From: Odoribacter sp.
Lineage (GTDB): Bacteria; Bacteroidota; Bacteroidia; Bacteroidales; Marinifilaceae
Direction of reading: 5' to 3'
Assembly: GCA_036657595.1 (NCBI GenBank)
Contig: JAVXFZ010000008.1
Coordinates: forward strand, 108 to 64,107
Length of the DNA: 64,000 nt
In this document: positions 44,095 to 64,000 of the stretch, piece after piece
Position numbering within the stretch: the first letter of the stretch is position 1
Layout of the letters: each line of letters begins with the position of its first letter
The notes under the pieces: generated by a model
The model's input: the letters and a program-made list of their open reading frames with translations, nothing else
Told to the model about the DNA's origin: nothing
Databases searched by the model: none
Translations under genes and position numbers: made by a program

Positions 44095-44217
44095 AATAAT
44101 TCTTAACTTTACATCACGAATAGATTCTTATATGTGTGAAATAAGACAGAATGTAAGTATTTGTTTTATAGTAATTTATGTTAATTTTGTCAGGACGTTT
44201 AAATTTAAAGAGTAGCT

Positions 44218-44664
44218 ATGTCTTCTTTTATTGGCGATTATACTTGTAAGGCTGACAGTAAGTGTCGAGTGGTGGTTCCGTCCTCTTTCAGAAAGGTGAT
44301 GGAAGCATCTGAACAGACGTTTTTTGTGCTACGTAAAAATATTTTCGGGAAGTGTATTGATATGTATCCGATGGAGGAATGGGAGCGAATGATTGCGGAG
44401 TTGAGATCTAAGTTGAATTTGTTTAATCCGAAGCACACGGTTTTTTTGAGGGAGTTTTGTCGGGGGATGCAAGAGGTGGAGATGGATACGAATGGACGGA
44501 TTTTATTGCCGCGCCGAATGTTGGATGAAGTAGGGATAGATAAGGAGATGGTGATGGCGGCTCAGGATGCTATGATTCAGATTTGGGATATAGAGGCTTA
44601 TGCGGAGGTGGCAGTGGATGCCGGCGGATTGGGGCAGTTGGCGGAGGAGATTTTTAAAAGTTGA
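44218..44664 (+). CDS. mraZ: Division/cell wall cluster transcriptional repressor
   Basis: FIGDYTCKADSKCRVVVP and MDTNGRILLP SpoVT/AbrB repeats. Confidence 0.93.
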   Translation: MSSFIGDYTCKADSKCRVVVPSSFRKVMEASEQTFFVLRKNIFGKCIDMYPMEEWERMIAELRSKLNLFNPKHTVFLREFCRGMQEVEMDTNGRILLPRRMLDEVGIDKEMVMAAQDAMIQIWDIEAYAEVAVDAGGLGQLAEEIFKS

Positions 44665-44751
44665 AGATCGGAAGACGCAAGTTGAACGATGGCAGATGGG
44701 AGAGTAGGGGAATAAGAGGTAAAAAAAAGGAATTTAATTTTTAATTATATT

Positions 44752-45660: not shown

Positions 45661-45709
45661 TGGTGAGCGATTGTTTAACGTGTAATGATCAGTTGGTTGT
45701 AAGCTTTTA

Positions 45710-46087
45710 GTGATGGAACAGCAGGATGAAGATAAGGATATAAAGATCCCGGAAGAGGAGGTAAAAGAGGTGAAGAAAGCCTCTTCGATGAAGGGTATGC
45801 TGGAAGGTAGTTTGTTGGCAGAGAAATTGAGGAGTAACATTCGTTTTGTGTTGTTTGCAACCTTTTTGGGGATTTGGTATATTACGAATGGTTATTCAAC
45901 AGAAAAGCTTCATCGGGAAAGAGGCGAACTGGAAAAAGAGGTGACAGATCTGAGGTTTGAGTCGATTACGACTGCCGCCGATTTGATGTTTATGAGAAAG
46001 CAGTCGGAAGTATTGAAACGGATACACCGGGAGGGGTTGACATTGGAGGAGAGTAAAGAACCGCCGGTAAAATTGTATAGGAGGTAG
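45710..46087 (+). CDS. ftsL: FtsL-like cell division protein
   Basis: Position between rsmH and the PBP gene; single TM plus coiled coil. Confidence 0.75.
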   Translation: MMEQQDEDKDIKIPEEEVKEVKKASSMKGMLEGSLLAEKLRSNIRFVLFATFLGIWYITNGYSTEKLHRERGELEKEVTDLRFESITTAADLMFMRKQSEVLKRIHREGLTLEESKEPPVKLYRR

Positions 46088-46089
46088 AG

Positions 46090-48195: not shown

Positions 48196-48240
48196 TTAGT
48201 GATAAAATAGATGGATAAAGGCGGGAGGTTTGTTGATTTG

Positions 48241-48260
48241 TTGAACATTTGAACATTTGA
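48241..48260. repeat. 8-bp tandem repeat before murE
   Basis: TTGAACAT TTGAACAT TTGA. Confidence 0.5.
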
Positions 48261-49720
48261 TAGTCGTGAAAAAATTAAAAGAATTATTGGATGGAATTCG
48301 TTTTGAGAAAATATGCGGTGACACCGAGATGGATGTCAATGCCGTGCATTTTGATTCCAGAAAAATAGGTAAAGGCGATTTGTTTGTAGCGCAACGAGGT
48401 GTGAGTGTGGATGGGCACGTTTATATTGCTAAGTCGGTGGCAGCGGGGGCAGTGGCTGTCGTTTGTGAGGAGTTGCCGAAAGAACTGACAGCAGGCGTGA
48501 CTTATCTTGTGACGTTGGATTCGTCGGACGCACTGGGGAAGATTGCTTCAAATTATTACGGCAATCCTTCGCGGGCATTGAAATTGGTCGGGGTGACCGG
48601 TACGAACGGAAAGACGACAACGGCTACTTTGTTGTATGAATTAGTTCGTTTTGCGGGGTATAAAGCAGGACTTTTGTCTACGGTGTGTAATTATATCGGG
48701 GATGAGAAGATTCAGGCTACGCATACAACTCCTGACGCTTTATCTATTAATGAGTATATGCGGCGGATGGTGGATGCGGGATGTACCTATTGTTTTATGG
48801 AGGCGAGTTCGCATTCTATTCATCAGAAACGTATAGCCGGATTGGATTTTGATGGAGCTATTTTTTCTAATATTACTCACGATCATTTGGATTATCATAA
48901 GACTTTTAAGGCATATATAGAGGCTAAAAAGGCATTTTTTGACCGTTTGCCTGCTCACGCTTTTGCTTTGACGAATGCGGATGATAAGAATGGTTTGGTG
49001 ATGTTGCAGAATACGGTGGCGCATTCATATACTTATTCGTGTCGGACGATGTCGGACTTTAGTTGTAAGGTGGTTGAAAAGCGGTTGGACGGTACGCTGT
49101 TGAAGTTGGACGGTTGTGAAGTGTGGACGAAATTTACGGGTGATTTTAATGCTTATAATATTCTTGCCGTTTATGCAACGGCTTGTTTGTTGGATTTCCC
49201 GAAAGAGGATGTGTTGAAGTATGTGAGTATGCTTGTGCCGGTATCCGGTCGTTTTGAAACGATGATTTCAGGAAAAGGGGTGATGGCTGTTGTTGATTAT
49301 GCTCATACGCCGGATGCGGTGGAGAATGTGCTTTCTACGATCAGTGGGTTGAAAGGTAAGAATAATCAGGTGATAACTGTGGTGGGTGCCGGAGGAGATC
49401 GAGATAAAACGAAACGTCCGGAAATGGCTGATGCGGCTTGTCGGTATAGTGATCGGGTGATTCTGACTTCTGATAATCCGAGAAGTGAGGAACCGGAGGA
49501 TATTATTCGTGATATGCAGACCGGAGTGAAAGAGGAGTATCAGAATAAAGTGGAAATCGTTGTCGATCGTCGGGAAGCGATTCGGCAGGCTCTTGCTATG
49601 GCAGGGAAGGGGGATATTGTTTTAGTTGCCGGAAAAGGTCACGAAGATTATCAGGAAATTAAGGGAGTGAAGCATCATTTTGATGATAAAGAAGTTATAA
49701 AAGAGGTGTTTAACTTTTAA
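48257..49720 (+). CDS. murE: UDP-N-acetylmuramoyl-dipeptide:meso-DAP ligase (start may be GTG 48266)
   Basis: GVTGTNGKTT, HTTPD, MEASSH, DHLDYH, VDYAHTPDA, DNPR, AGKGHE. Confidence 0.96.
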   Translation: MIVVKKLKELLDGIRFEKICGDTEMDVNAVHFDSRKIGKGDLFVAQRGVSVDGHVYIAKSVAAGAVAVVCEELPKELTAGVTYLVTLDSSDALGKIASNYYGNPSRALKLVGVTGTNGKTTTATLLYELVRFAGYKAGLLSTVCNYIGDEKIQATHTTPDALSINEYMRRMVDAGCTYCFMEASSHSIHQKRIAGLDFDGAIFSNITHDHLDYHKTFKAYIEAKKAFFDRLPAHAFALTNADDKNGLVMLQNTVAHSYTYSCRTMSDFSCKVVEKRLDGTLLKLDGCEVWTKFTGDFNAYNILAVYATACLLDFPKEDVLKYVSMLVPVSGRFETMISGKGVMAVVDYAHTPDAVENVLSTISGLKGKNNQVITVVGAGGDRDKTKRPEMADAACRYSDRVILTSDNPRSEEPEDIIRDMQTGVKEEYQNKVEIVVDRREAIRQALAMAGKGDIVLVAGKGHEDYQEIKGVKHHFDDKEVIKEVFNF

Positions 49721-49729
49721 TTGTAAGAT

Positions 49730-50980
49730 ATGTTATACCATTTGTTTCAGTATTTAGAGCAGTTGCATTTTCCTGGTGCGGGAATGTTTCAATACATTAC
49801 TTTTCGCTCAGCCTGTGCTATTATTCTTTCGTTGCTGATTGCTACGGTTGTGGGCAAGCGGGTGATTCGTCGGTTACAGAAACAGCAGATTGGCGAGGAG
49901 ATTCGCGATCTCGGACTTGAAGGACAGATGCAAAAAAAGGGAACACCGACAATGGGAGGTGTTATTATTTTATTGGCGATTCTGGTGCCTGTGCTTTTGT
50001 TTGCCCGTTTGGATAATATTTATACGCAGTTGATGATTATTTCAACGATCTGGCTTGGATTAATTGGTTTTGCGGATGATTATATTAAAGTGTTTCGTAA
50101 GCACAAAGAGGGACTGAAAGGACGTTTTAAGGTGATCGGACAGGTCGGTTTGGGACTGATTGTCGGATTAACGCTTTATGTGAGTGATGATGTGGTTATT
50201 CGCGAGCGGGCAACACCTTCTGAAGTGGGAGTGGTGACGAGTATGGTGGATGAAGGTTTTTCTGAAGGAAACGGGAAGAAGATTTTAACTAAGGATGTGA
50301 AGTCAACACGGACTACTATTCCTTTTTTTAAAGGGAATGAATTGGATTATGCGTGGTTTACTTCTTTTGCCGGTAAATATGCGGATCAGATGGGGTGGTT
50401 GTTGTTTGTGATTGTGACTATTTTTATTATTACAGCAGTGTCGAATGGGGCAAATTTGACGGATGGACTTGATGGATTGGCGACGGGGACGTCGGCTATT
50501 ATCGGGGCTACGTTGGGTATATTGGCGTATGTTTCAGGTAATATGGTCTATGCTGATTATTTGCATATTATGTATATACCCCATTCCGGGGAGTTGGTGG
50601 TGTTTATTTCTGCGTTTATCGGGGCAACCATCGGATTTTTGTGGTATAATTCTTTCCCGGCGCAGGTGTTTATGGGGGATACCGGAAGTTTGTCGTTGGG
50701 AGGTATTATTGCTGTTTTTGCGATCATTATACACAAGGAGTTGTTGATACCCGTACTTTGTGGTGTTTTCTTGGTGGAGAATTTGTCGGTGGTGATGCAG
50801 GTGAGTTATTTTAAATATACGAAACAGAAGTATGGTGAGGGACGTCGTGTTTTTTTGATGTCGCCCTTGCATCATCATTATCAGAAGAAGGGGATTCCGG
50901 AGCCGAAGATTGTTACCCGTTTTTGGATTATTGGGATTATTTTGGCAGTGCTTACGATTGTGACACTGAAAATTAGATAA
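49730..50980 (+). CDS. mraY: Phospho-N-acetylmuramoyl-pentapeptide transferase
   Basis: [37 protein letters not shown]. Confidence 0.97.
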
Positions 50981-51024
50981 TGAAAAGATAGCGATTTTAT
51001 TGCTGATAGGTAATTATAATAGAA

Positions 51025-52365
51025 TTGATTATGAGATTGGTTATTTTGGGTGGAGGAGAAAGTGGCGTAGGAGCAGCCTTATTGGGTAGGAAACTGGGTT
51101 ATGAGGTTTTTTTGTCGGATAAGGGTTGTTTGGCTGATAAATATAGAGGAATCCTGTTGAAGAATGGATTTGAGTTTGAAGAAGGACATCACACGGAGGA
51201 GCGAATATTTAATGCTGATTTGGTGGTGAAAAGTCCGGGTATCCCTGATACGGTGGCGATGATCGTGAAGTTGCGTGCCGAGGGGATAGAGGTGATCTCT
51301 GAAATAGAATTTGCGGGACGGCATTCTGCCTCTAAGATGGTTTGTATTACCGGTAGCAATGGTAAGACAACGACTACTTTGCTGATTCATCATATTCTTA
51401 CGCATTGCGGTCGAGATGCCGGTTTGGCGGGGAATGTGGGTAGAAGTCTTGCGGCACAGGTGGCAGAGAATGCACACGAGTTGTATGTGGTGGAGCTTTC
51501 CAGTTTTCAATTGGATGGTATGTTCCGTTTTCGTGCTGATATTGCTATTTTGACGAATATTACACCCGATCATTTGGATCGTTATGACCATAAGTTTGAA
51601 AATTATATAGATTCAAAGTTTCGGATTTTAAATAATATGCGTCCACGGGATTTGTTTATCTATGGGCAGGATAGCGAGGCGGTGCGCCAGAAATTGAGTC
51701 GGTTGAAGGTGGAGGTTGATCAGCTTAGTTTTACTTATGGCAGTCGGGAGAACGGTTACGGAGCTTGGATGGAAGGAGGAGTTGTGGTGGCAAAATCGGA
51801 TGATAGGGAATTTCGGATGAATCCCTCGGAGATTAGTATTAAAGGACGGCACAATGTTTATAATGCAATGGCAGCTATTTTGGCTTGTATGCGGATGGGT
51901 GTCAGTGATGGAGATATAGCAGAGGGTTTGCGGACTTTTCCACAGGTGGAGCATCGGCTTGAAACGGTTGTTGTGAAGTCGGGGGTTACTTATATTAATG
52001 ATTCTAAAGCTACGAATGTGGATTCGTCGTGGTATGCTTTGGATAGTATGACGACTCCTGTGGTGTGGATCGCCGGAGGTACGGATAAGGGGAATGATTA
52101 CAGCGTTTTGTTTGATTTAGTTCGACAGAAGGTGAAGGTGTTGATTTGTATGGGTTTGGATAATCGCAAGTTGATTGAGAATTTTGCGTCAATATGTAAA
52201 GTGGTCGATACCAATAATTTGGCGGATGCATTGAAGGCTGCCAGAGAGAATGCGGTTTGCGGGGATACGGTGTTGTTATCTCCTTGCTGTGCCAGTTTTG
52301 ATTTGTTTAAGAATTATGAAAATCGAGGTGAGCTTTTTAAAGCTGCCGTTCGAGAGATAATCTGA
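51025..52365 (+). CDS. murD: UDP-N-acetylmuramoyl-L-alanine:D-glutamate ligase
   Basis: ITGSNGKTTT, ELSSFQL, DHLDRY, NDSKATN, SPCCASFD. Confidence 0.97.
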   Translation: MIMRLVILGGGESGVGAALLGRKLGYEVFLSDKGCLADKYRGILLKNGFEFEEGHHTEERIFNADLVVKSPGIPDTVAMIVKLRAEGIEVISEIEFAGRHSASKMVCITGSNGKTTTTLLIHHILTHCGRDAGLAGNVGRSLAAQVAENAHELYVVELSSFQLDGMFRFRADIAILTNITPDHLDRYDHKFENYIDSKFRILNNMRPRDLFIYGQDSEAVRQKLSRLKVEVDQLSFTYGSRENGYGAWMEGGVVVAKSDDREFRMNPSEISIKGRHNVYNAMAAILACMRMGVSDGDIAEGLRTFPQVEHRLETVVVKSGVTYINDSKATNVDSSWYALDSMTTPVVWIAGGTDKGNDYSVLFDLVRQKVKVLICMGLDNRKLIENFASICKVVDTNNLADALKAARENAVCGDTVLLSPCCASFDLFKNYENRGELFKAAVREII

Positions 52366-52413
52366 GTTTAGGGAACGCAATGTGTAATTTGTAAGGTAGT
52401 TGTAGGTGGCTAT

Positions 52414-53943
52414 ATGATGAGCAATTGGAAAGATAAAATGGCGTTTAAGGGAGATAAGATACTTTGGTATATTATCATTATGCTGATGATTGCTTCGGTG
52501 ATGGTCGTTTATTCGGCTACCGGGCGATTGGCATATAATGAGCAGGGAGGAAATACATTTTTTTATTTGATCAAACAATTGTTTTTGATTGGCGGTTGTT
52601 TTGCGATTATGTTTGTTGTTCAGTCTATTCATTATCGGAATTTTTATAAGTATGCGGGGGTATTGTTGTTTATTTCTGTTTTGCTTTTGATGTATGCCGC
52701 CTTTGGAGGAACTAATATTAATGGGGCAGGGCGTTGGATTCGTATACCTCTGATCGGTATGACCTTTCAGCCTTCGGAGTTGGCGAAGATCGCTATTATG
52801 ATGTTTACTTCGCGGATATTGGCGGATGCACAGACGGAATATGGTTGTGAAGATAGTGCTTTGAATAGATTTCTTGTTTTTGTGGGTCCGGTGATTTTGT
52901 TGATTTTTTTGGATAACTTTTCTACCTCCGCCTTGGTGGGCTTGGTTAGTTTTATATTGTTTATGGTGGCGCGGATGCGCTGGAAAGTGTTGGGCATTAC
53001 TTTTGGTGTGGCACTTTCGGCCATTATTATTGTTTTGGTGATTGGTTTTTGTGTGCCACAGGCGAAGGAATGGGGACGTATCGGTACGATGGTGAGCCGT
53101 ATTACAGATTTTGCACAGGGGAGTGATGATAGCGATGGTTATTCTTATCAGTCGGTGCAGGCGCGGATTGCTGTTGCGCGGGGTGGTTTGATGGGGAATG
53201 GTCCCGGTAATAGTACGCAACGGAATTTTTTACCTCATCCGTATTCTGATTTTATTTATGCGATTGTGATTGAAGAGTATGGACTGGGAGGAGGAGGTTT
53301 TATAATGTTGCTCTATGCTGTAATATTGTTTCGGGTGGGGGTGATTAGTCGAAAGAGTTTGAAGGGGGCAGAATTGAATGCGCGGGGGATGCCGGATATA
53401 TTTCCGGCGTTGCTGGTGACCGGTTTAGGTTTGACGATTGTGATTCAGGCGATGATTAATATGGGCGTATGTGTGGGGGTGTTGCCCGTTACGGGGCAGA
53501 CTTTGCCATTGGTAAGTATGGGAGGAACATCGCTATGGTTTACGAGTGCCTCTTTTGGTATTATTCTTAGTATTGCTCATACTTTTTCACCTGAAGGTCA
53601 GGCAGAAGAAGCTGAGAGAATGAGATGGAAGAGTGAAAAGTTGGTGAAACCGGAGAAACGAAAGAAGAAGGAAGAGTATGAGGATTTACCTGTTAACGAG
53701 GAGGAGGAAGAGGATGATTGGGTGGAGGGTGAATTACCGGAAGTGAAGCCGGAAGAAAAACCGACGAAACCAATACGGCGACGAGGACGGCGAGTGGCTG
53801 ATGAAGAATCGGAAAAAGAAGAGGATATTGATATTATCGGAGAAGAGGGAATGAAAGATATGAGTGAGCAATTGGAAAGTGAGGGACGTGAAGTTTTAAA
53901 GGAGTTGCGGAGAAGGGGGAGAAGAGCTAATTTGGAGGATTAA
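52414..53943 (+). CDS. ftsW: Peptidoglycan glycosyltransferase FtsW with long charged C-terminal tail
   Basis: QPSELAK, DFIYAIVIEEYG, GQTLPLVSMGGTS; ~115-aa acidic tail. Confidence 0.92.
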   Translation: MMSNWKDKMAFKGDKILWYIIIMLMIASVMVVYSATGRLAYNEQGGNTFFYLIKQLFLIGGCFAIMFVVQSIHYRNFYKYAGVLLFISVLLLMYAAFGGTNINGAGRWIRIPLIGMTFQPSELAKIAIMMFTSRILADAQTEYGCEDSALNRFLVFVGPVILLIFLDNFSTSALVGLVSFILFMVARMRWKVLGITFGVALSAIIIVLVIGFCVPQAKEWGRIGTMVSRITDFAQGSDDSDGYSYQSVQARIAVARGGLMGNGPGNSTQRNFLPHPYSDFIYAIVIEEYGLGGGGFIMLLYAVILFRVGVISRKSLKGAELNARGMPDIFPALLVTGLGLTIVIQAMINMGVCVGVLPVTGQTLPLVSMGGTSLWFTSASFGIILSIAHTFSPEGQAEEAERMRWKSEKLVKPEKRKKKEEYEDLPVNEEEEEDDWVEGELPEVKPEEKPTKPIRRRGRRVADEESEKEEDIDIIGEEGMKDMSEQLESEGREVLKELRRRGRRANLED

Positions 53944-53963
53944 AGATTAAATTAGATATATGT

Positions 53964-55076
53964 ATGAAAAGAGTGATTGTCAGTGGTGGCGGAACGGGAG
54001 GTCATATTTTCCCCGCTTTATCAATTGCTAATGCTTTAAAGCGGTTGGAGCCGGATATGGAGATTTTATTTGTCGGTGCAGAGGGGAAAATGGAGATGGA
54101 AAAAGTGCCTGAGGCGGGTTATCGAATAGAAGGTTTGCCGGTGAGAGGATTGCAGCGGCGTTTGACGTTTGAAAATGTGAAGGTGTTGGTGAATCTTTGG
54201 AAGAGTTTGCGGAAGGCACGTCGGATTGTGAAGGAGTTTAAACCGGATGCTGTTGTCGGAGTGGGAGGGTATGCCAGTGGACCGATTGGGCGTGTGGCTG
54301 CAAATGCCGGTATTCCGTTGATTTTGCAAGAACAAAATTCGTATGCCGGAGTGACAAATAAATTATTGGCGAAGAAAGCTTGCCGGATCTGTGTAGCATA
54401 CGAAGGTATGGAGCGTTTTTTCGGGAAGGATAAGATTGTATTTACCGGGAATCCTGTACGCAAGGATTTGCTCGGTGGAGAAAATCTACGGGGAGAGGGA
54501 ATGTCTTTTTATTCTTTGGACCCGTCGAAAAAGACTGTTTTGATGACAGGAGGAAGTTTGGGTGCCGGGACATTAAATAAAGCTCTTTTGAAGGCGATGG
54601 ATAAAATTGCTACGTGGAAAGAGGTGCAGGTGTTATGGCAGTGTGGCAGTTATTATTATGAAGATTTGAAAAAGCAATTGGAGGGAAAGTTGCCTGATAA
54701 TATTCGTTTGATGCCTTTTTTGAAACGGATGGATTTGGCTTATGCTTGTGCGGATGTGGTGATTGCCCGTGCTGGTGCTGGGACTATTTCTGAGTTGTGT
54801 TTGTTGGGAAAGGTGGCTGTATTGATTCCTTCGCCGAATGTGTCGGAGGATCATCAGACGAAGAATGCAATGGCTTTGGTGAATAAAAATGCTGCTGTGA
54901 TATTGAAGGATGCTGAGGCTGAAGAGAAGTTGGAAGCTGTATTGTCGGATATTCTGTCTGATGGAAATCGTCGATTGGAATTGCAAAAAAATATTATGAA
55001 TCTGGCTGTCCATCATTCGGATGATAAGATTGCGAAAGAGGTATTGAAAGTAATTGAGGAAAGTAATCGTTTTTGA
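53964..55076 (+). CDS. murG: Undecaprenyl-PP-MurNAc-pentapeptide GlcNAc transferase
   Basis: GGGTGGHIFP, GGYASGP, QEQN, GNPVR, GGSLGA, RAGA, HQTKNA. Confidence 0.97.
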   Translation: MKRVIVSGGGTGGHIFPALSIANALKRLEPDMEILFVGAEGKMEMEKVPEAGYRIEGLPVRGLQRRLTFENVKVLVNLWKSLRKARRIVKEFKPDAVVGVGGYASGPIGRVAANAGIPLILQEQNSYAGVTNKLLAKKACRICVAYEGMERFFGKDKIVFTGNPVRKDLLGGENLRGEGMSFYSLDPSKKTVLMTGGSLGAGTLNKALLKAMDKIATWKEVQVLWQCGSYYYEDLKKQLEGKLPDNIRLMPFLKRMDLAYACADVVIARAGAGTISELCLLGKVAVLIPSPNVSEDHQTKNAMALVNKNAAVILKDAEAEEKLEAVLSDILSDGNRRLELQKNIMNLAVHHSDDKIAKEVLKVIEESNRF

Positions 55077-55167
55077 TGTATAGCTGGAATGGTTTGTTTG
55101 TCAGAAATTGTTAAAATATAAACGAAACGTCAAGTTGATGATTCAGTGAACTTAAATCGTCTTTGTT

Positions 55168-56550
55168 ATGGCAGAAATTTTAAGTAAAGGAATAAAAAAT
55201 ATATATTTTTTGGGGATCGGTGGGATCGGAATGAGCGCGTTAGCGCGTTATTTTAGGGCTTGTGGATATAAGGTTGCCGGATATGACCGTACTCCTTCAC
55301 CATTGACGGCTAAAATGCAAGAGGAGGAGGGGATCGCCATAAATTATCGGGATGAGGAGGAGGAAATAGCTTTGGAGTATAGAGATACTGAAACGACTTT
55401 GGTTGTTTATACACCGGCAATTCCTGCGAATAATCGGCAATTGCTTTTTTTGAAGGGTTTGGGCTTTACGTTGCATAAGCGGGCAGAAGTGTTGGGAATG
55501 ATTTCTCGTCAAGGGAAGGCGATTTGTGTCGCTGGGACTCACGGTAAGACGACGGTTTCGACGATGGTCGCTTTTCTGCTTTATCATTCTTCTGTCGGAT
55601 GTAATGCTTTTTTGGGTGGAATTTCTATGAATTTTGGAACCAATCTTTTATTGAATCGTAAGTCTCCGTATATTGTGATTGAAGCAGATGAGTTTGATCG
55701 TTCGTTTTTGCATTTAAGCCCGAAAATGGTGGCAATTACGGCAATGGATGAAGATCATTTGGATATTTATGGAGATAAGGCTAATCTGACGGATGCATTT
55801 GAAGCATTTGCTCAAAGGGTGTGTCCTGATGAAGGAAGGCTTTTTATCAAGAAAGGTTTGATGTTGGAAAAGACGGCGGTGACGGGATATTATGGCGTAG
55901 AAACGCCGGCTGATTGTGTCGCCGACCATTTGAGGGTTGAGGAGGGACATTATGTCTTTGATTATCACGGACGGGGGGTGGAGATGAAAGAATTGATGTT
56001 GGGTGTTCCGGGACGTTTGAATGTGGAGAATGCTACGGTAGCTATTACGCTGGCACTTGAAGCGGGGGTGAAGCCGGAGGAGATCCGGGCGGCATTGCCT
56101 GAATTTAGAGGAGTATTCCGCCGTTTTAATATTCATATTAATACGGGCGATTGTATTTATATTGATGATTATGCGCATCATCCGCGTGAAATAGAGGCAA
56201 CATTGCGTTCGATTCGGGAAATGTGGCCGGAGAAGTCGCTGACGGTAGTTTTTCAACCACATTTGTTTTCTCGTACGCGTGATTTTTATCCTGATTTTGC
56301 GCGTAGTTTGAGTTTGGCGGATGAAGTTGTTTTGTTGGATATTTATCCGGCACGGGAGTTGCCTATTCCGGGGATTACTTCGGAAGTTATTCGTGAACGC
56401 TTGACGGTGACAGGAAGAATTTTATCCAAAGAAGGATTGAAGGATTACATTCGGAATGAATTTCAAAAGGGTATTTTAGTGACGATGGGGGCTGGTGATA
56501 TAGATCGGATGGTGGAGGAAATCAGGACGGATTTGATGGCTAAAAATTGA
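55168..56550 (+). CDS. murC: UDP-N-acetylmuramate:L-alanine ligase
   Basis: GIGGIGMSALA, AGTHGKTT, EADE, DHLD, DDYAHHP, FQPHLFSRT. Confidence 0.97.
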   Translation: MAEILSKGIKNIYFLGIGGIGMSALARYFRACGYKVAGYDRTPSPLTAKMQEEEGIAINYRDEEEEIALEYRDTETTLVVYTPAIPANNRQLLFLKGLGFTLHKRAEVLGMISRQGKAICVAGTHGKTTVSTMVAFLLYHSSVGCNAFLGGISMNFGTNLLLNRKSPYIVIEADEFDRSFLHLSPKMVAITAMDEDHLDIYGDKANLTDAFEAFAQRVCPDEGRLFIKKGLMLEKTAVTGYYGVETPADCVADHLRVEEGHYVFDYHGRGVEMKELMLGVPGRLNVENATVAITLALEAGVKPEEIRAALPEFRGVFRRFNIHINTGDCIYIDDYAHHPREIEATLRSIREMWPEKSLTVVFQPHLFSRTRDFYPDFARSLSLADEVVLLDIYPARELPIPGITSEVIRERLTVTGRILSKEGLKDYIRNEFQKGILVTMGAGDIDRMVEEIRTDLMAKN

Positions 56551-56632
56551 AAAATGAAAGGGCTGATAGCTGAAAAAATAGTGATAAGAAAAAGGAATTA
56601 AGAACGACCTACTGCTCTCAATAATAGAGTTT

Positions 56633-57358
56633 ATGAAAAAAATATTACCTTATATATTATCTGTTAGTTTGCTTGCATACTTGATAATTGTGCTTACCTT
56701 TGCAACGACAAAATTGGAGGAGGTTAAGTGTAAGGGATTGCAGGTTGTCGTTGATGATACCGGGGAGAATGCGTTTATTGATGAAGAGGGAGTTTTGAGG
56801 GTGATTAAACGTGGATATGGTGATTTAAATGGTCGGAATGTTGTTTCTATTGATAAAGACAGTTTGGAACATATTTTGATCAGAAATTCGGTGATAAAGT
56901 CGGCTCAGATTTACTACAGTTTAGACGGTTATTTCCATATAGAGATCACACAACGAATGCCTGTATTGAGAGTTATGACAGGTGAAGGTTATTATGTGGA
57001 TGAAGATGGAAAGGTGATGCCGTTATCCGGGAAGTATACATCGCGTGTGGTGGTAGCTACCGGAAATATATCCAGAAAATTTGCTTGTAGCGGATTATTT
57101 CCTTTTGTGATGGCATTGAAAGACGATGAGTTTTGGAATGCATTGGTTGAACAAATTATTGTCATAAATGGCGATGAGGTTGTTTTGATACCTAAAATTG
57201 GTAATTTTAGAATTGTCTTAGGACAGTTGGAGGAGGTAGATAAAAAGTTAGATAATTTGCGATTGTTCCTTCACGATGGGATTTCCTTGAAAGGATGGAA
57301 TAGATATAAGGAGATCAATTTGAAGTTTGAAAATCAAATTGTTTGTGTAAAAAAATGA
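56633..57358 (+). CDS. ftsQ: Cell division protein FtsQ/DivIB
   Basis: N-terminal TM, POTRA-like region, ITQRMPVLRV, INLKFENQIVC; dcw position. Confidence 0.85.
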   Translation: MKKILPYILSVSLLAYLIIVLTFATTKLEEVKCKGLQVVVDDTGENAFIDEEGVLRVIKRGYGDLNGRNVVSIDKDSLEHILIRNSVIKSAQIYYSLDGYFHIEITQRMPVLRVMTGEGYYVDEDGKVMPLSGKYTSRVVVATGNISRKFACSGLFPFVMALKDDEFWNALVEQIIVINGDEVVLIPKIGNFRIVLGQLEEVDKKLDNLRLFLHDGISLKGWNRYKEINLKFENQIVCVKK

Positions 57359-57384
57359 ATGAAGTAATGAAATTGTAAGAAGAT

Positions 57385-58554
57385 ATGGGTTTTACTGCAT
57401 CTTTAGATATGGGGTCTGAAAAAATGGTGATGGCATTGGCTTCGACTGAGAATAATGCTTGCCGTTTGACTGGTATAAAAATAGTAGCTTCGCAGGGTAT
57501 TGAGCGTGGAATAGTGAAGGATAAAGAAAAGGTACGTGCCTGTATCCGCGGGTTGATGTCAGAATTGTTGAAAGAGCGTGACGTGGATGTTATGATTGTG
57601 GCATTGTCGGGTGATGTTTTGCGTATATCGGAGCGACGTATCACGGTGCCTTTGCAGAAAAAGGTGGTTGAGCAGAATGACTTGTTGAGAGCAGAACAAC
57701 GTTGTATTGATGGCTTTGAGGAGGGACACGATGAGTTGGTGGACGTGATTCCTGTTGCTTATTCTATTGATAAAGGGGATTTGATCGCCGATCCTTTGGG
57801 ACGATCCGGTCGGCATTTGGAGGTTACCTATCAGGTGTATGCTGCCGGATGTGATTATTTGGAGGGAATTCGGAAGTTGTTTGATGGTACGGGGATAGGG
57901 GAAGTTTGTTTTTCTCCGGCGGTACGTGCTTACAGTGAAGCTTTCGATGTAGAGAAGGTGAAAAAGGATTTTGCCTTGGTGGATTTTGGCGCAATGAAGA
58001 TAAATGTGGTGCTTTTCCGTGATGGTATGTTGGAATATGAGGCGTGTTTGCCATTGGGAGCACATAGCATTGATAATGATATAATGAAGGCATTTGCATT
58101 GAGTGGTGGACAAGCTCGTAAGTTGAAACACGAGTATGGGCAGGCATTAAGGTCTGCTTGTAAAAATAAAAAATTGCAGATTCCTGATACACGGTTGACC
58201 TTAGAAAGCCGTGATTTGGCGATGGTGATTCAAAGTCGGGCAGAGGAGTTGTTGGAAGGGGTGGTTTATCAATTGCAAAGTTGGGGATTTGACGAGCCGG
58301 AGGATGAGATTTTACTGACGGGTGGAGGAAGTCGTTTGCAGGATATAGATACCTTATTGAATCGACTTTCCGGCCATCGGGTGGGGCGGGTCATAGCGAA
58401 AGGGATACATACCACGCGAGAGGAAGTGTTGCATACGCCTGAATATTTGGTGGCTTTGGGGTTGTTGTTGTCTGATCGACAAGCTCCCCAAGAAACAAAG
58501 GGTAGTTTGGGCGGAAAGATTACCAAAGGATTGAAGGGCATTTTTGGTATTTGA
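57385..58554 (+). CDS. ftsA: Cell division protein FtsA (divergent)
   Basis: LDMGSEK, SQGIERG, LTGGGSRL, C-terminal amphipathic helix KITKGLKGIFGI; dcw position. Confidence 0.85.
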   Translation: MGFTASLDMGSEKMVMALASTENNACRLTGIKIVASQGIERGIVKDKEKVRACIRGLMSELLKERDVDVMIVALSGDVLRISERRITVPLQKKVVEQNDLLRAEQRCIDGFEEGHDELVDVIPVAYSIDKGDLIADPLGRSGRHLEVTYQVYAAGCDYLEGIRKLFDGTGIGEVCFSPAVRAYSEAFDVEKVKKDFALVDFGAMKINVVLFRDGMLEYEACLPLGAHSIDNDIMKAFALSGGQARKLKHEYGQALRSACKNKKLQIPDTRLTLESRDLAMVIQSRAEELLEGVVYQLQSWGFDEPEDEILLTGGGSRLQDIDTLLNRLSGHRVGRVIAKGIHTTREEVLHTPEYLVALGLLLSDRQAPQETKGSLGGKITKGLKGIFGI

Positions 58555-58621
58555 TGTTTTAATATGAAGTGATTTAGTTATTTATTTATAGTGTTAGTTT
58601 TTATCTTATATCTTTTTTGTT

Positions 58622-59941
58622 ATGGAAATAGATGACGACTTAATTTCGCTGAAGTTACCGGATCAGGGGCAAGAGGAATCGATTATTAAAGTGATCGGTG
58701 TCGGTGGTGGCGGAAGTAATGCTGTGAACCATATGTTTTCTCAGGGAATTCACGGTGTCGAATTTGTCGTTTGTAACACGGATATACAGGCTTTGCGACA
58801 GAGCCGGGTGAAGAATCGTATACAATTGGGGAAGGAGCTTACGGATGGACGTGGGGCAGGATGTCAGCCTGAACAGGGACGTTTGTCGGCGGTTGAGAGT
58901 ATTGATTTTATTAAAACGATTCTTCAGCATAATACCCGTATGGTATTTATCACAGCCGGAATGGGCGGTGGAACGGGTACAGGAGCTGCACCGGAAATTG
59001 CAAGGTTGGCTCGAGAGATGGGGATATTGACGATTGGAATTGTCACCGTACCTTTTAGTTTTGAAGGGAAACGAAAGATAGAGCAGGCGATGGAGGGGAT
59101 TGATGAATTGGAGGAGTATGTCGATGCTTTGTTGATTATTGCCAACGAACGACTGCGAGAGATATATGGCGACTTGAAATTGTCGGATGCTTTTTCTATG
59201 GCTGATAATATATTGACAATTGCAGCTAAAAGTATAGCGGAGATTATCACGGTCAAGGGATATGTGAATGTCGATTTTGCCGATGTGGAGAGTGTTATGC
59301 GTGAGAGTGGCGTTGCCTTGATGGGAGCTTCTGAGGCAGAAGGGGAGGAACGTGCAATGGAAGCTTTGTCAAATGCATTGATATCTCCTTTGCTGAATAG
59401 TAATGATATTCGGGGCGCTTCGAATATTTTACTGAATATACTTTACGGTGAAAAAGAGGTGACGATGGATGAGATTAGTTTGATTACCGATACGTTGCGA
59501 GAGAAGGTAGGGAAGAATGTAAATGTTATTTGGGGAGCGGGTAAGGATGAGGTTTTGGGTGAAAAGTTGCGTGTAGCTGTTATTGCTACTGGTTTTAATA
59601 GTAATGGTGGTAAGGTATCGCCTGCTATATCACAACGAAAAGAAACTCCTGTTGCACAGACTGTTTCTGTTGCACCGGAAGCTCCTGTGAGTAAGCCTTA
59701 TTTTAAGGTGGAAACTTTGCCTGATGATTTAGAGATGAGGGTGGTTAATCCGGTAGAAGTGGAAAATGAAGCACGTCAGCGGCGACAGAAACAGGAGGAT
59801 GAGCGTGAACGTCGGCAGCGACGGAATGTAAATCGGCGTACTGAAGATTTTGAACGTGGCAATCGTGGTCTGAATGAGGTGCCTGATACCAATAGTTGGC
59901 TAAAGAATAAGATAGGGACATTATTCAGCGATGATGAATAA
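58622..59941 (+). CDS. ftsZ: Cell division protein FtsZ, paralogue 1 (439 aa)
   Basis: IKVIGVGGGG, GMGGGTGTG tubulin signature, T7 loop NVDFADV, VIATGF. Confidence 0.96.
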   Translation: MEIDDDLISLKLPDQGQEESIIKVIGVGGGGSNAVNHMFSQGIHGVEFVVCNTDIQALRQSRVKNRIQLGKELTDGRGAGCQPEQGRLSAVESIDFIKTILQHNTRMVFITAGMGGGTGTGAAPEIARLAREMGILTIGIVTVPFSFEGKRKIEQAMEGIDELEEYVDALLIIANERLREIYGDLKLSDAFSMADNILTIAAKSIAEIITVKGYVNVDFADVESVMRESGVALMGASEAEGEERAMEALSNALISPLLNSNDIRGASNILLNILYGEKEVTMDEISLITDTLREKVGKNVNVIWGAGKDEVLGEKLRVAVIATGFNSNGGKVSPAISQRKETPVAQTVSVAPEAPVSKPYFKVETLPDDLEMRVVNPVEVENEARQRRQKQEDERERRQRRNVNRRTEDFERGNRGLNEVPDTNSWLKNKIGTLFSDDE

Positions 59942-60026
59942 AATGCAATGGACGAGCAAGAATGAATGATAGAATAAAAGGGGTGAATAAGTGAAGAGGT
60001 TCAACATTCAATATTTAGTGATCGAC

Positions 60027-60056
60027 AGATAAACGGATAAACGAATAAACGAATTA
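60027..60056. repeat. 8-bp-period tandem repeat between the two ftsZ genes
   Basis: AGATAAAC GGATAAAC GAATAAAC GAATTA. Confidence 0.65.
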
Positions 60057-60061
60057 GGGTC

Positions 60062-61189
60062 ATGGTTGACGGATTTATAAATTTTAATCTGAATGAGAAG
60101 ACTCCCACTATTATTAAAGTGATTGGCGTAGGAGGAGGAGGAGGAAATGCAGTGGAGTATATGTACGATAAGGGGATCTGCGATGTGGATTTCGTAATCT
60201 GCAATACAGATTATCAGGCATTGAGGAATAGTCCGATACCTTTTAAAATACAGCTTGGCAAAGAACTAACGGAAGGACACGGTGCTGGTAATAATCCGGT
60301 GATGGGTGAACAATCAGCGCAAGAAAGTTTGGGTGATATAGAAACGCTTTTGCAAAATAATACCCGAATGGTGTTTATTACGGCTGCGATGGGAGGTGGA
60401 ACAGGCACAGGTGCTGCTCCGGTGATAGCAAAAATTGCTAAAGATATGGGTATCCTTACCGTCGGTATTGTTTCTGTTCCGGCACGCTTTGAGGGTCCGA
60501 AACGGCTTGATCAGGCTCGCGACGGATTGAAGCGATTGAAGGATCACGTTGATTGTCTTATTATGATAGATAATGAAAAGATAAAGTCAATATATGGTTC
60601 TCAAACAATTTCTGCTGCTTTTGCTAAGGCGAATGATGTGTTGAATATTGCGGCGAAAGGAATCGCTGAGATTATTACGCTTCCCGGTTATATCAATGTT
60701 GATTTTGCTGATGTGAGAACAGTGATGACCGATAGTGGTGTGGCTATTATGGGGGCGGCGCAGGCATCCGGTGAAGATCGTGCAATACGTGCGATAACGG
60801 AGGCATTAGAAAGTCCATTGTTGAATAATAATGATATTTTAGGAGCAAAGGATATATTGTTGAATATTACGTCCGGTACGGATGAAATCACGATGGATGA
60901 GATGTCGCAAATTACTTCGCATATTATTCAAAAGGTGGGTAATAGTGCGGCAGTGATCTGGGGGGTAGGTACGGATATTAATTTAGGGGATGCCATCTCT
61001 GTAACGATAATTGCTACCGGTTTTCCTACCGGTGATATAGAGCTGTTTGGAGAGGATACGGTGAGTACGGATGTGGATAGACCTGTTACATTAAAAGATG
61101 CAGTTGTCAAACCGGGATTGACTGCCACAGCAATACAGGAACTTGAAAGTGTCCCTGCTTTCAAGAGGAGGGAATTGAAAGTCAATTGA
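60062..61189 (+). CDS. ftsZ: Cell division protein FtsZ, paralogue 2 (375 aa)
   Basis: IKVIGVGGGG, AMGGGTGTG, NVDFADV, IIATGF; C-terminal ELESVPAFKRR. Confidence 0.96.
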   Translation: MVDGFINFNLNEKTPTIIKVIGVGGGGGNAVEYMYDKGICDVDFVICNTDYQALRNSPIPFKIQLGKELTEGHGAGNNPVMGEQSAQESLGDIETLLQNNTRMVFITAAMGGGTGTGAAPVIAKIAKDMGILTVGIVSVPARFEGPKRLDQARDGLKRLKDHVDCLIMIDNEKIKSIYGSQTISAAFAKANDVLNIAAKGIAEIITLPGYINVDFADVRTVMTDSGVAIMGAAQASGEDRAIRAITEALESPLLNNNDILGAKDILLNITSGTDEITMDEMSQITSHIIQKVGNSAAVIWGVGTDINLGDAISVTIIATGFPTGDIELFGEDTVSTDVDRPVTLKDAVVKPGLTATAIQELESVPAFKRRELKVN

Positions 61190-61240
61190 AAATGAAAATA
61201 ACTACTGATCTTTCAGGGTTAAAAAGATTAGTGGGATAAA

Positions 61241-61355
61241 AAATGCAGATCGCTGCATTTATATTGAGAATACGGCGTTTGCCGTTTGTGAAGCAGCTAA
61301 GGCTGCAATAATTTTAACGCAGTCACAGGCTGCTTGTAACGCAGTCATAGGCTGC
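61241..61355 (+). other. Array of short GC-rich hairpins / direct repeats upstream of the DEAD-box helicase gene
   Basis: AAATGCAG-ATCG-CTGCATTT, ACGGC-GTTT-GCCGT, GCAGC-TAAG-GCTGC, and TAACGCAGTCA(C/T)AGGCTGC twice at 22-bp spacing. Confidence 0.7.
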
Positions 61356-61367
61356 ATAAATAATCGA

Positions 61368-63191
61368 ATGGAAAAATTTAAAGAATTAGGTTTAGAAGGA
61401 GAAATCCTTAAGGGAATTGAAGATTTAGGGTTTGATATGCCCACACCAGTGCAGGAAAAAGTGATCCCAGTGATTTTAGGGGAAGGGAATGATTTGGTTG
61501 TACTTGCTCAAACAGGTACAGGAAAAACTGCCGCTTTTGGTCTACCGTTGTTACAAAAACTCGATACCTCTTTGAATGAGGTGCAGGTGCTTATTTTGAG
61601 TCCTACTCGGGAATTGTGTATGCAAATTGGTAAGGATTTAATGAATTATGCAAAATACAGGAAAGATATTCGTGTTGCTTGCGTATATGGAGGGACGGAT
61701 ATTCGCAGGCAGATGAGTGAATTGAATAGGGGTGTACACGTTTTGGTTGCAACACCGGGACGGCTTTGCGATTTAATGAAGCGGAATGCTGTGAAGATCG
61801 TACACGTGCGGTCTGTAGTACTCGATGAGTCGGATGAGATGTTGAATATGGGTTTCAAGGAAGATTTGAATTTTATCTTAGACGAAACACCATCGGAGAG
61901 AAATACTTATTTGTTTTCTGCAACAATGCCGCGCGAGGTGGAACGGATTGCGAAGCATTATATGCGTAATGCACAAGAAATTTCTACCGGAAAGAAGAAT
62001 CAAGGAGCTGATACGGTGTCGCACGAGTATTATCAAGTGCTTGCTCGAGACTGTTATGAAACTTTGCATCGTGTGATTGATTGTTCTCCTGATATGTATG
62101 CAATTATCTTTACACGTACGAAAGTGGATGCACGGGATATTGTGCGTAAACTTCAGAAAGATGGGATTGATTGTGATGCTTTACACGGTGATTTGAGTCA
62201 GGGACAACGCGATGAAGTGATGGAGCGTTTCCGTGGAAAACGTTTGAAAGTACTGGTCGCAACCGATGTGGCTGCTCGTGGTTTGGATGTTGATAATCTG
62301 ACTCACGTAATCAATTATAATTTGCCGGAAGATGTGGAAAGTTATACCCACCGTAGTGGTCGTACCGGTCGTGCCGGTCGTGAGGGTATTTCGGTAGCGA
62401 TTATCAATTCAAAGGAAAAGGGGAAATTGCACAGGATTGAGAGTGTGTTGAAAAAGAAATTCCAATATCGGGAAGTGCCTCGTGGAGAGGAAGTATGTCG
62501 GGCACAACTTCTTTATTATGCTGATAAGATATTGGCATCGGAGCCCAAAGAGATGCTTGATAAATATCAGCACGAATTATTTGAGAAATTTGGTGAACTG
62601 ACAAAAGAGGAGTTGATACAGAAAATAGTGTCGTACGAATTTGGGAAATTGCTTAAGAAATATGCTTCGGTGAATGACTTGAACATTTCAGAGGATGAGC
62701 GGCACAGTGATCGGGGTGCCCGAACTGAAGGACGTGGTGAGGTGCGTAGAGGTGGACGCGATAGAGAAGAAAGCAGTTCATTTACCCTTTTCAACGTGAA
62801 TGTAGGTCGGGAAGATGGTTTCACTCCACGCGACCTGATGGCAATTATTAATACTTATTCTCCACGAAAAGGTATTGAGATCGGTGGTATACGAATCTTT
62901 GACAACAATACGAAGTTTGAGGTAGATATTCGAGGAATAGAAGGATTTATGTCCAATTTTAATAATGTGAATTTTAATGGACTGCCTTTTACTCTTTCAG
63001 AATTACAGGAACGCTTTAGTCGTGGCGGAGATAGAGGTGATCGCCCTCGTGAATTTGGTGATCGTCGAAATTCTACGGCGAATAATAAATGGCGTTCTGA
63101 AAACCGACGTAGCGATGGTAGTAGTCGAGGACGTTTCGGTGAAAAGAAGAAAGGGATAGATAGTGTTAGTCGTCCACGTAAGAAATATTAA
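61368..63191 (+). CDS. DEAD-box RNA helicase (DeaD/CshA-like, with DbpA-type RNA-binding domain and Arg/Gly tail)
   Basis: Q motif PTPVQ, AQTGTGKT, PTREL, TPGRL, motif II DESD, SAT, HRSGRTGRAG. Confidence 0.93.
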   Translation: MEKFKELGLEGEILKGIEDLGFDMPTPVQEKVIPVILGEGNDLVVLAQTGTGKTAAFGLPLLQKLDTSLNEVQVLILSPTRELCMQIGKDLMNYAKYRKDIRVACVYGGTDIRRQMSELNRGVHVLVATPGRLCDLMKRNAVKIVHVRSVVLDESDEMLNMGFKEDLNFILDETPSERNTYLFSATMPREVERIAKHYMRNAQEISTGKKNQGADTVSHEYYQVLARDCYETLHRVIDCSPDMYAIIFTRTKVDARDIVRKLQKDGIDCDALHGDLSQGQRDEVMERFRGKRLKVLVATDVAARGLDVDNLTHVINYNLPEDVESYTHRSGRTGRAGREGISVAIINSKEKGKLHRIESVLKKKFQYREVPRGEEVCRAQLLYYADKILASEPKEMLDKYQHELFEKFGELTKEELIQKIVSYEFGKLLKKYASVNDLNISEDERHSDRGARTEGRGEVRRGGRDREESSSFTLFNVNVGREDGFTPRDLMAIINTYSPRKGIEIGGIRIFDNNTKFEVDIRGIEGFMSNFNNVNFNGLPFTLSELQERFSRGGDRGDRPREFGDRRNSTANNKWRSENRRSDGSSRGRFGEKKKGIDSVSRPRKKY

Positions 63192-63227
63192 ACCGGATTT
63201 CGTTTTAGTTGCTTTTACTTAAAACAT

Positions 63228-63258
63228 AAAGAAGTCACACCTTGGTGTGGCTTTTTTG
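63228..63258 (+). terminator. Intrinsic terminator after the helicase
   Basis: AGTCACACC-TT-GGTGTGGCT followed by TTTTT. Confidence 0.75.
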
Positions 63259-63636
63259 TATTTTAGAAAATTATTCTCCATTAAGATATAGTTTGACCTA
63301 TTATGACTAATGTTTGGAAGAATAAATATCCAAATATTTATAGATTTTGTAAGTATTCAAATAATAATTTATTTTTTTTAGATTTTTTCTTCTTTTCATT
63401 CACCCTCTTTTCTAAAAAATCTGTTCTACTATAACAAAGCAAAAATAATCGTTCCTTTATTTGGGTGATTAAAGTGCAGAAAAAAGATAAATAAGGAGGA
63501 ATGAAAAAATATAGATGTAAGTTGGTGTAGATAAATGCAAATAAGAAAAAAAAGAGGGAAGAATTAATAAAAAGTATTGTTGACTATGGAGGATTTTTTA
63601 CCTTCTATTTTCGACTCAAATAAAGGAACGTTTTTT

Positions 63637-64000
63637 ATGGATACAGAAGAGATGATGCAACACATATTGCTTTTGCTAAAAGGTAAAGCGACAGAAAATG
63701 AGGAAAGATTGGTGCGGGAGTGGTTTGATGAGAGCGAAGAGCATAGAAAGAGATACAAAGAAATCTGTGAGACGTATTATAAATTACAATTTGGGGCACA
63801 ATGGAAAGAAATTGACCTTCAAAGGGCGATTGAAAAATGCACCACACAGATTGGTAAAAAACGACCATTGAACAGAAGAATCTATCGTTTATCCACAGTG
63901 GCTGCTTTATTGTTGCTTTGTATAGGAATTATGATTCTAATGCGGCGACCGGAAAATAATGTTATAAAAGTAGCTGTATGTGAAGATGTGAGGTTTGGAG
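63637..64000 (+). CDS. FecR-family anti-sigma/sensor protein, partial (runs off the window end)
   Basis: Manual translation MDTEEMMQHILLLLKGKATENEERLVREWFDESEEHRKRY...AALLLLCIGIMIL; typical FecR N-terminus plus TM; alternative in-frame ATG at 63586. Confidence 0.8.
   Translation, partial: MDTEEMMQHILLLLKGKATENEERLVREWFDESEEHRKRYKEICETYYKLQFGAQWKEIDLQRAIEKCTTQIGKKRPLNRRIYRLSTVAALLLLCIGIMILMRRPENNVIKVAVCEDVRFG

Follow-up and report, generated by a model that had tools for sequence, protein, structure and literature searches.

Two tandem FtsZ proteins of Odoribacter differ in their C-terminal tails, one of which resembles the tail of FtsA

The window analysed here is a stretch of 64,000 nucleotides from an Odoribacter genome (contig JAVXFZ010000008.1, positions 108 to 64,107), and at 51-63 kb it contains the division and cell wall (dcw) cluster. 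The genes of the cluster are murD, ftsW, murG, murC, ftsQ and ftsA, followed by two ftsZ genes in tandem, referred to here as ftsZ1 and ftsZ2, and then by a gene for a DEAD-box helicase. The ftsA gene (57385-58554, plus strand) encodes a protein of 389 amino acids with the Pfam FtsA and SHS2_FTSA domains. The product of ftsZ1 (58622-59941, plus strand) is a full FtsZ of 439 amino acids whose tail is without a docking peptide for FtsA, while that of ftsZ2 (60062-61189, plus strand) is a full FtsZ of 375 amino acids that has a short linker and has kept the ancestral docking peptide. Both proteins score above the curated cut-off of the TIGR00065 model (361.7 bits for FtsZ1 and 352.5 bits for FtsZ2, with the cut-off at 295.2), and the PF00091 (Tubulin) and PF12327 (FtsZ_C) domains were found in both. 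The cores are 58% identical over 293 residues, and each has the GTP-binding box GGGTGTG (within GGGTGTGAAP) and the T7 loop NVDFAD (within NVDFADV), of the pattern N-x-D-x-x-D. Exactly two FtsZ matches, FtsZ1 and FtsZ2, were obtained in the genome. No terminator-like site was found in the interval between ftsZ1 and ftsZ2, the next such site lying 3' of ftsZ2, at position 61293. The intergenic regions upstream of the two ftsZ genes (58555-58621 and 59942-60061), compared by eye, revealed no similarity. Two FtsZs that look competent for polymerisation, with different conserved tail motifs, are retained together.

The C-terminus of FtsZ2 is ELESVPAFKRRELKVN. Its conserved end peptide, IQELESVPAFKRRELKVN (61133-61186, plus strand), lies about 35 residues beyond the core and is presumed to bind FtsA. 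A sequence-only reading of this DNA had described a short linker and an end resembling the FtsA-binding peptide, and this description was borne out: ESVPAFKRR, at residues 361-369 of 375, is conserved across the family Marinifilaceae, corresponds to the canonical peptide D/E-I/V-P-x-F/Y-L-R/K and aligns with the E-N-x-P-A-Y-K-R-K of single-copy FtsZs of Bacteroidota. Every single-copy Bacteroidota FtsZ that was examined has the pattern E-x-x-P-A-F/Y-x-R/K-R/K, as does the final gene of each ftsA-linked array of ftsZ genes. Single-copy FtsZs from sister families and from other Bacteroidota orders are approximately 470-570 amino acids long, and end in E-N-x-P-A-Y/F-x-R/K-R/K plus about 40 residues. 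This extension past the docking peptide, of the form S-R-F/Y-S-L..N-N-S-F-L-H-D-N-V-D, is itself conserved in the single-copy proteins of Bacteroidota (loci L004-L011 and L047-L110). FtsZ2 of Odoribacter has kept the P-A-F peptide and stops some ten residues later, the conserved extension having been lost. In two other genera of Marinifilaceae, FtsZ2 retains a remnant of the extension (VIKFTLDEE), and in Prolixibacteraceae and the other array-bearing families the extension is complete or recognisable on the last copy. Since all single-copy FtsZs of the sister families carry P-A-Y/F-x-R/K, we take the FtsZ2 peptide to be the ancestral FtsA-docking peptide. SepF and ZipA were looked for in the genome, which is 99% complete, and neither was found, while FtsA is present; this leaves FtsA alone as a recognised partner of the peptide. 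FtsZ2 presumably docks onto FtsA through this end peptide, and both the retention of the ancestral peptide and the lack of SepF and ZipA in the genome support the anchoring through FtsA that had been suggested earlier.

The tail of FtsZ1, whose C-terminus is SWLKNKIGTLFSDDE, has a different structure. It is 114 residues long and consists of a Pro/Ala/Val-rich stretch, followed by EARQRRQKQEDERERRQRR and by the end NSWLKNKIGTLFSDDE; it has three conserved elements and is not truncated. The open reading frame thus matches the earlier description of FtsZ1 as a protein with no FtsA-binding motif and with a longer Pro/Ala/Val linker and an Arg/Glu-rich stretch. No P-A-F/Y-x-R/K peptide was found in the last 100 residues. 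The sole P-x-F of the tail, in KPYFKVE (residues 358-364), has a proline that is not conserved, and is followed by acidic rather than basic residues. This sequence opens a linker motif, KPYFKVETLPDDLEM (residues 358-372; 59693-59737, plus strand), with the consensus F-K/R-V/I-E-x-L/I-P-E/D-D/E-L-E-M, which is kept in FtsZ1 of most sampled Marinifilaceae and is not recognisable in two genera (L012 and L016). A similar sequence, PDFEVTNNPELEM, is carried by the second of the three copies in one triple array (L118). The motif may serve as a further site for docking, or it may be a relic left by decay of the docking peptide. The Arg/Glu-rich stretch (residues 377-409; 59750-59848, plus strand) is conserved as EEEARQRRxxQEEER across Odoribacter, and was modelled by AlphaFold2 as one helix of 33 residues with a confidence score (pLDDT) of about 75. 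The predicted helix resembles a charged single alpha-helix spacer; linkers of FtsZ are usually disordered.

The tail of FtsZ1 ends in the peptide PDTNSWLKNKIGTLFSDDE (residues 421-439; 59882-59938, plus strand), an FtsA-type tail that we propose as a direct membrane anchor. When FtsZ1 proteins of Marinifilaceae and Prolixibacteraceae were compared, W426 and F435 were the only invariant residues of the tail, and G432 was nearly so. A word-indexed search with the tail region returned four near-identical proteins only. The terminal peptides of FtsZ1 and of FtsZ2 are each conserved in every Marinifilaceae genome examined, and their features are therefore not due to chance. Within Odoribacter, the ratio of nonsynonymous to synonymous substitution rates (dN/dS), a rough value here because dS is saturated, was 0.04 for the core of either protein, 0.26 and 0.62 for the linkers (the higher value being that of FtsZ2), and 0.15 and 0.16 for the terminal peptides of FtsZ1 and FtsZ2, respectively. 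Both terminal peptides are thus more constrained than the fast-evolving linkers that adjoin them. We conclude that both genes are intact and under strong purifying selection.

The tandem pair was present in every sampled Marinifilaceae genome that held the locus on one contig (8 genera). In a sample of 401 genomes from the same order of the GTDB, representing about 140 families, nearly all genomes had one ftsZ. Arrays linked to ftsA were observed in seven families, as pairs in Marinifilaceae, Prolixibacteraceae (f74) and families f15, f19 and f97, and as triples in families f32 and f69. Essentially every genome outside the order was single-copy in a sample of 300 genomes from across the phylum. 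In every ftsA-linked array, P-A-F/Y was found on the last gene alone, and the upstream copies all ended in a short periodic motif of hydrophobic and aromatic residues, patterning as an amphipathic helix, and then in acidic residues (examples are SWLKRKIGTLFSDEE, NWFIGKFTQIFDNDDTSM, SWFHRQFTRFFEDNDV, GGWVASLFDEKDDELK and QFLINFFDDLEE). In the triples (L118-L121 in f32 and L126 in f69), ftsA is followed by three tandem full-length ftsZ genes; the two upstream copies have different amphipathic and acidic ends (QFLINFFDDLEE and NWIQTTFDVLFNADEE), and the last copy has the ancestral tail. According to a survey of FtsZ evolution (PMC9871819), second copies are few in bacteria and lie outside the dcw cluster, a statement that the tandem ftsA-linked arrays do not fit. 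No description of these arrays was found in the literature on Odoribacter FtsZ and on FtsZ paralogues in Bacteroidota, and the literature searched contains no report of an FtsZ with an FtsA-type tail beside a canonical FtsZ in a walled bacterium.

Other additional FtsZ-like sequences were observed away from such arrays. In one genome (G346, family f126; loci L129 and L130), a second full FtsZ lies about 146 kb from the dcw-linked copy and ends in FVEKVKKRMEQFAFDITQDDDNK, a helix followed by an acidic end. Partial matches, covering the front half of the FtsZ model only and located away from the dcw cluster, were seen in G111, G228, G319 (f87), G334 and G409 (f114), and are probably separate FtsZ-derived accessory proteins.

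The FtsA of the window also ends in a tail, GSLGGKITKGLKGIFGI (58501-58551, plus strand), a presumed membrane-targeting helix with a hydrophobic moment of 0.69, which is at the 95th percentile of the C-termini of its own genome. FtsA tails from Bacteroidales with a single ftsZ, of which GFFDNLKTHFNKIFDENDTEM, GIFDSLKKTISNIFEENDAKM and IMDIFKTKIGNIFDDGTE are examples, have a layout in common with the FtsZ1 tail, in which a basic stretch precedes an amphipathic helix and the C-terminus is acidic. The common end of Bacteroidales FtsA tails and FtsZ1-type tails can be written I/L-F-D/E-E/D-x-D-x-x-M. In a pairwise comparison, the last 24 residues of each protein were given their best local BLOSUM62 score against 11 FtsA tails from single-ftsZ lineages, with the C-termini of 2,777 open reading frames of the window's genome as the null distribution (median 20, 99th percentile 32, maximum 39). 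The median best score of FtsZ1-type tails was 32, equal to the 99th percentile of the null, and six of the tails exceeded all background C-termini, while FtsZ2 tails (19) and single-copy FtsZ tails (20) were at background level. The FtsZ1 tail of the window, WLKNKIGTLFSDDE, scored 34 with the FtsA tail that matches it best, IFKTKIGNIFDDGTE (empirical p 0.006). Further examples of matches are the FtsZ1 tails FSNIFDNKDTPM and FTQIFDNDDTSM with the FtsA tails ISNIFEENDAKM and FNKIFDENDTEM.

A comparison of alignments with hhalign gave the same picture. Alignment of 25 FtsZ1-type tails with 19 FtsA tails yielded a score of 19.2 (P 1.7e-4). Among the controls, single-copy FtsZ tails scored 8.1, FtsZ2 tails 5.9 and a reversed alignment 10.2; none of 200 column shuffles reached 19.2 (mean 6.1, standard deviation 1.6, maximum 14.2). 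Net charge, determined in windows of residues 45-19, 18-9 and the last 8, counted from the C-terminus, was +2.6, +0.9 and -2.6 in FtsZ1-type tails and +1.1, +0.2 and -1.4 in FtsA tails from single-ftsZ genomes. A first profile hidden Markov model of FtsA tails, in which the window's FtsZ1 ranked third of 2,778 proteins with an E-value of 0.48, was dropped, as its MAFFT alignment was poor and dominated by Sphingobacteriaceae and its discrimination was weak. On the comparisons above, we conclude that the terminal peptide of FtsZ1 is similar to FtsA tails beyond composition.

The FtsA proteins of Marinifilaceae are short, with 387-397 amino acids versus 417-470 elsewhere (loci L032-L043, L111, L112 and the window), and that of the window scores 165.2 bits against TIGR01174, below the cut-off of 175.85. 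The acidic end, kept in FtsZ1 tails and in the FtsA tails of other Bacteroidales, has been lost from theirs, so that the FtsZ1 tail is nearer to the FtsA tails of single-ftsZ families than is the tail of the FtsA encoded beside it. This argues against a simple co-adaptation of both tails in one cell.

In the species in which it has been tested, E. coli, B. subtilis and T. maritima, the FtsA tail is a membrane-targeting helix. The membrane-targeting tails of these three species are reviewed in 10.1101/2023.08.29.555414. The earlier reading had left open whether FtsZ1 binds the membrane directly or uses another partner; because the tail of FtsZ1 resembles the part of FtsA that anchors FtsA in the tested species, direct binding appears to be the best-supported option. 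We propose that division in Odoribacter and in all sampled genera of Marinifilaceae relies on two FtsZ subunits, the products of the tandem genes that follow ftsA. FtsZ2, having kept ESVPAFKRR, would be held at the membrane indirectly, through FtsA. FtsZ1 has lost the docking peptide and carries, beyond a long linker with a predicted Arg/Glu-rich helix, a tail of FtsA design, made of a basic run, a short amphipathic helix (W-L/F-x-x-x-I/F-G-x-L-F) and an acidic end; through this terminal peptide it would most likely bind the inner membrane directly. Since the GTP-binding box and the T7 loop are retained in both cores, mixed filaments of FtsZ1 and FtsZ2 with two kinds of tether are plausible. 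That FtsZ2 is tethered through FtsA and FtsZ1 is self-anchored through an FtsA-derived or FtsA-type tail, the two genes plausibly stemming from one tandem duplication, is in our judgement the probable arrangement, though one to be held with reserve.

The simplest origin of the pair would be one tandem duplication of a segment reaching from the 3' part of ftsA into the ftsZ linker. Such an event would yield in one step ftsA, an ftsZ core fused to the ftsA tail, and an intact ftsZ; a single duplication is suggested because this product is exactly the gene order observed, and the triples would require one more duplication. The pair thus plausibly originated by tandem duplication. In an approximately unbiased (AU) test on the core tree, the placement of all FtsZ1-type copies in one clade was not rejected (p-AU 0.44), and shared ancestry of these copies is favoured by their common terminal motif and by the linker motif F-K-V-E-x-L-P-D-D-L-E-M, to be compared with PDFEVTNNPELEM. 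An extended form of this proposal is offered tentatively, as a possibility that we would not yet rely on: FtsZ1 may be a natural chimera of FtsZ and an FtsA tail, produced by a single tandem duplication with one breakpoint in the 3' part of ftsA and the other in the linker of ftsZ, and may act in several Bacteroidales families as a self-anchoring subunit of the Z-ring, co-polymerising with a canonical FtsZ that is tethered by FtsA. The ring would then have two independent tethers, and FtsA would be partly freed from tethering, which fits the shortened FtsA of Marinifilaceae.

Another origin of the two tails was considered and rejected, namely that the paralogues split two motifs of an ancestral FtsZ. 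The sequence-only reading had asked whether both motifs were once on one protein, with the single FtsZs of sister families as the comparison. These proteins have the docking peptide and lack the FtsZ1 motif, which is absent from the single-copy FtsZs examined; the two motifs were therefore not once on one FtsZ. Under such a split, the FtsZ1 end (TNSWLKRKIG) would have been derived from the terminal extension of Bacteroidota FtsZ (NNSFLHDNVD). This is contradicted by Prolixibacteraceae and others, in which the last copy has both ancestral motifs and the upstream copy already has the new tail, and also by the hhalign score of FtsZ1-type tails, which was 10.8 with single-copy FtsZ tails and 19.2 with FtsA tails.

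Several observations weigh against a self-anchored FtsZ1 with a tail taken from FtsA. The similarity between FtsZ1 and FtsA tails spans only about 20 residues; FtsZ1 linkers compared by BLAST with FtsA C-terminal regions and with FtsZ tails gave nothing below an E-value of 0.4, and convergence on a common function could still account for the resemblance. The FtsZ1 end of the window is moderately amphipathic, with a best 11-residue hydrophobic moment of 0.53 (66th percentile of the genome's C-termini) and with one Lys on the hydrophobic side of the terminal helix. AlphaFold2, run with 14 sequences, modelled the core well and placed a short helix at residues 423-432, at a pLDDT below 50. The acidic end of the tail is by itself unfavourable for binding anionic lipid, and we know of no Bacteroidota FtsA tail that has been tested for membrane binding. 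In the core tree, holding FtsZ1 and FtsZ2 of Marinifilaceae in one clade, the grouping that a duplication inside the family lineage would produce, was at least as likely as the free search (log-likelihood 5.5 higher), and the tree does not discriminate one ancient origin from several; gene conversion between the tandem cores could blur it. The earlier claim that the FtsZ1 end patterns as an amphipathic helix holds clearly for orthologous tails of other genera and families (hydrophobic moment 0.70-0.81, 96th-99.7th percentile) and weakly for the window itself. In this species, amphipathicity alone would not have been convincing as a sign of membrane binding.

An alternative reading is that the terminal peptide of FtsZ1 is a protein-docking motif rather than a membrane anchor, its likeness to FtsA tails being due to binding of the same partner, which might be a second site on FtsA, a Zap-type protein, or the long charged tail of FtsW. 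The invariant aromatic and hydrophobic positions W426 and F435 and the conserved acidic end are typical of short linear docking motifs, the basic residues within the helix are not conserved between families, the hydrophobic moment in the window is unremarkable, and the conserved linker motif FKVExLPDDLEM also looks like a docking site. Against this stand the polybasic runs that FtsZ1-type tails adjoin, as membrane-targeting sequences do, and the fact that no candidate partner was identified. In addition, the equivalent tail of FtsA is a membrane-targeting helix in every species known to have been tested (10.1101/2023.08.29.555414). We regard a docking motif as unlikely, while giving it serious weight. 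It is improbable that FtsZ1 is instead a modulator or condition-specific paralogue, serving, for example, ring dynamics, shape control or stress, and not a regular ring subunit, in which case the two tails would not be two tethering routes in one ring. Other extra FtsZs of bacteria are accessory or lie outside the dcw cluster (PMC9871819), but ftsZ1 is flanked by ftsA and ftsZ2, no terminator-like site separates it from ftsZ2, its core is as constrained as that of FtsZ2 (dN/dS 0.04), it retains all hallmarks of the GTPase and of the polymer interface, and it is kept in every sampled genome of the family. Redundant duplicates whose tails differ by neutral drift are hardly credible, for although FtsZ linkers generally evolve fast, this reading is already contradicted by conservation, the terminal peptides being conserved from genus to genus and, in the case of the FtsZ1 type, from family to family, with dN/dS of 0.15-0.16 at the ends versus 0.26-0.62 in the linkers and the same asymmetric pattern in all seven families with ftsA-linked arrays.

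Two other features of the region were recorded. The C-terminal tail of FtsW (window 53590-53943) is long, charged and mostly acidic, with two RRRGRR patches, and is a conceivable partner of the basic linker of FtsZ1. GC skew on the coding strand is very strongly positive (0.29-0.49) in window 44000-64000, across the whole dcw region.

A self-anchored FtsZ1 beside an FtsA-anchored FtsZ2 would have counterparts in several known systems. In plastids of the green lineage, the C-terminal motif of FtsZ1 (Z1C) binds the membrane weakly and that of FtsZ2 (Z2C) binds ARC6, and cyanobacterial and algal FtsZ motifs did both jobs on one protein (PMC11285052). The parallel with plastid FtsZ2/FtsZ1 specialisation drawn by the sequence-only reading is apt, given these roles of Z1C and Z2C: in both cases two paralogues coexist, one with a motif for an anchor protein and the other with a membrane-type motif of its own, here a predicted one. 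Unlike in plastids, the anchor is FtsA and not ARC6, the paralogues are tandem genes in a bacterial dcw cluster, and the membrane-type tail looks like that of the anchor protein, not like an altered FtsZ motif. In contrast to the cyanobacterial and algal case, the single-copy ancestor here shows no FtsZ1-type motif. In Odinarchaeota, FtsZ1 has an N-terminal amphipathic helix of its own and FtsZ2 is recruited by SepF through its C-terminal tail (PMC12583498). Labour would likewise be divided here between an FtsZ with its own helix and one with an adaptor-recruited tail, but in Odinarchaeota the helix is N-terminal, the adaptor is SepF, and the two proteins are ancient archaeal lineages and not a tandem pair.

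According to 10.1101/2023.08.29.555414, the FtsZ proteins of Mycoplasma genitalium and M. pneumoniae have no canonical peptide, and have a C-terminal amphipathic helix that binds liposomes and the E. coli membrane. FtsZ1 is similarly a bacterial FtsZ without the canonical FtsA-binding peptide and with a predicted amphipathic end. Unlike these mycoplasmas, which are wall-less and have minimal genomes and a single FtsZ, the present organism is a walled Gram-negative bacterium that has kept a canonical FtsZ alongside; the Mycoplasma helix is unrelated in sequence to the FtsZ1 tail, and a relation to FtsA tails is not discussed in the accessible text. From the known self-anchoring FtsZs, the present case differs in the walled Gram-negative host, in the conserved tandem arrangement, as a pair or triple, within the dcw cluster, and in a membrane-type tail related to that of the adaptor FtsA. 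Osawa, Anderson and Erickson reportedly engineered in 2008 an FtsZ-mts, in which the FtsA-binding peptide was replaced by the amphipathic helix of MinD. FtsZ1 is like FtsZ-mts in having an FtsZ core whose docking peptide is replaced by the (here predicted) membrane-targeting helix of another division protein; FtsZ-mts is artificial and uses the MinD helix, whereas the swap seen here is apparently natural, involves the FtsA tail, and has left an unmodified FtsZ in place. The C-terminal membrane-targeting sequence of FtsA is said to have been reported by Pichoff and Lutkenhaus in 2005. The FtsZ1 tail is like it in lying at the very C-terminus, behind a flexible linker, and in having a short, here predicted, amphipathic helix and basic residues nearby; it differs in being attached to a tubulin-fold rather than an actin-fold core, and its helix is about 3-4 residues shorter than those of most FtsA tails. 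Agrobacterium has extra FtsZ paralogues that are tail-less or truncated and lack the FtsA-binding peptide; FtsZ1 shares the lack of the docking peptide with them but, with its 114-residue tail, is not truncated.

The tethering of the Z-ring, and the role of FtsA other than as a tether, are old questions that have mostly been addressed with artificial FtsZ-mts, a construct also alluded to in 10.1101/2023.08.29.555414. If the predicted behaviour of the tail is correct, FtsZ1 would be the natural counterpart of that engineered protein, and a clear case in which a division protein gained a new function when the tail of an adjacently encoded one was grafted onto it. Multi-FtsZ rings would then have evolved in bacteria too, beyond plastids and archaea. 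If FtsZ1 does bind the membrane itself, Odoribacter and its relatives, which are culturable gut bacteria, would offer a natural system in which a self-anchored and an FtsA-anchored FtsZ coexist under selection across families, and in which direct and adaptor-mediated tethering could be separated by genetics and reconstitution.

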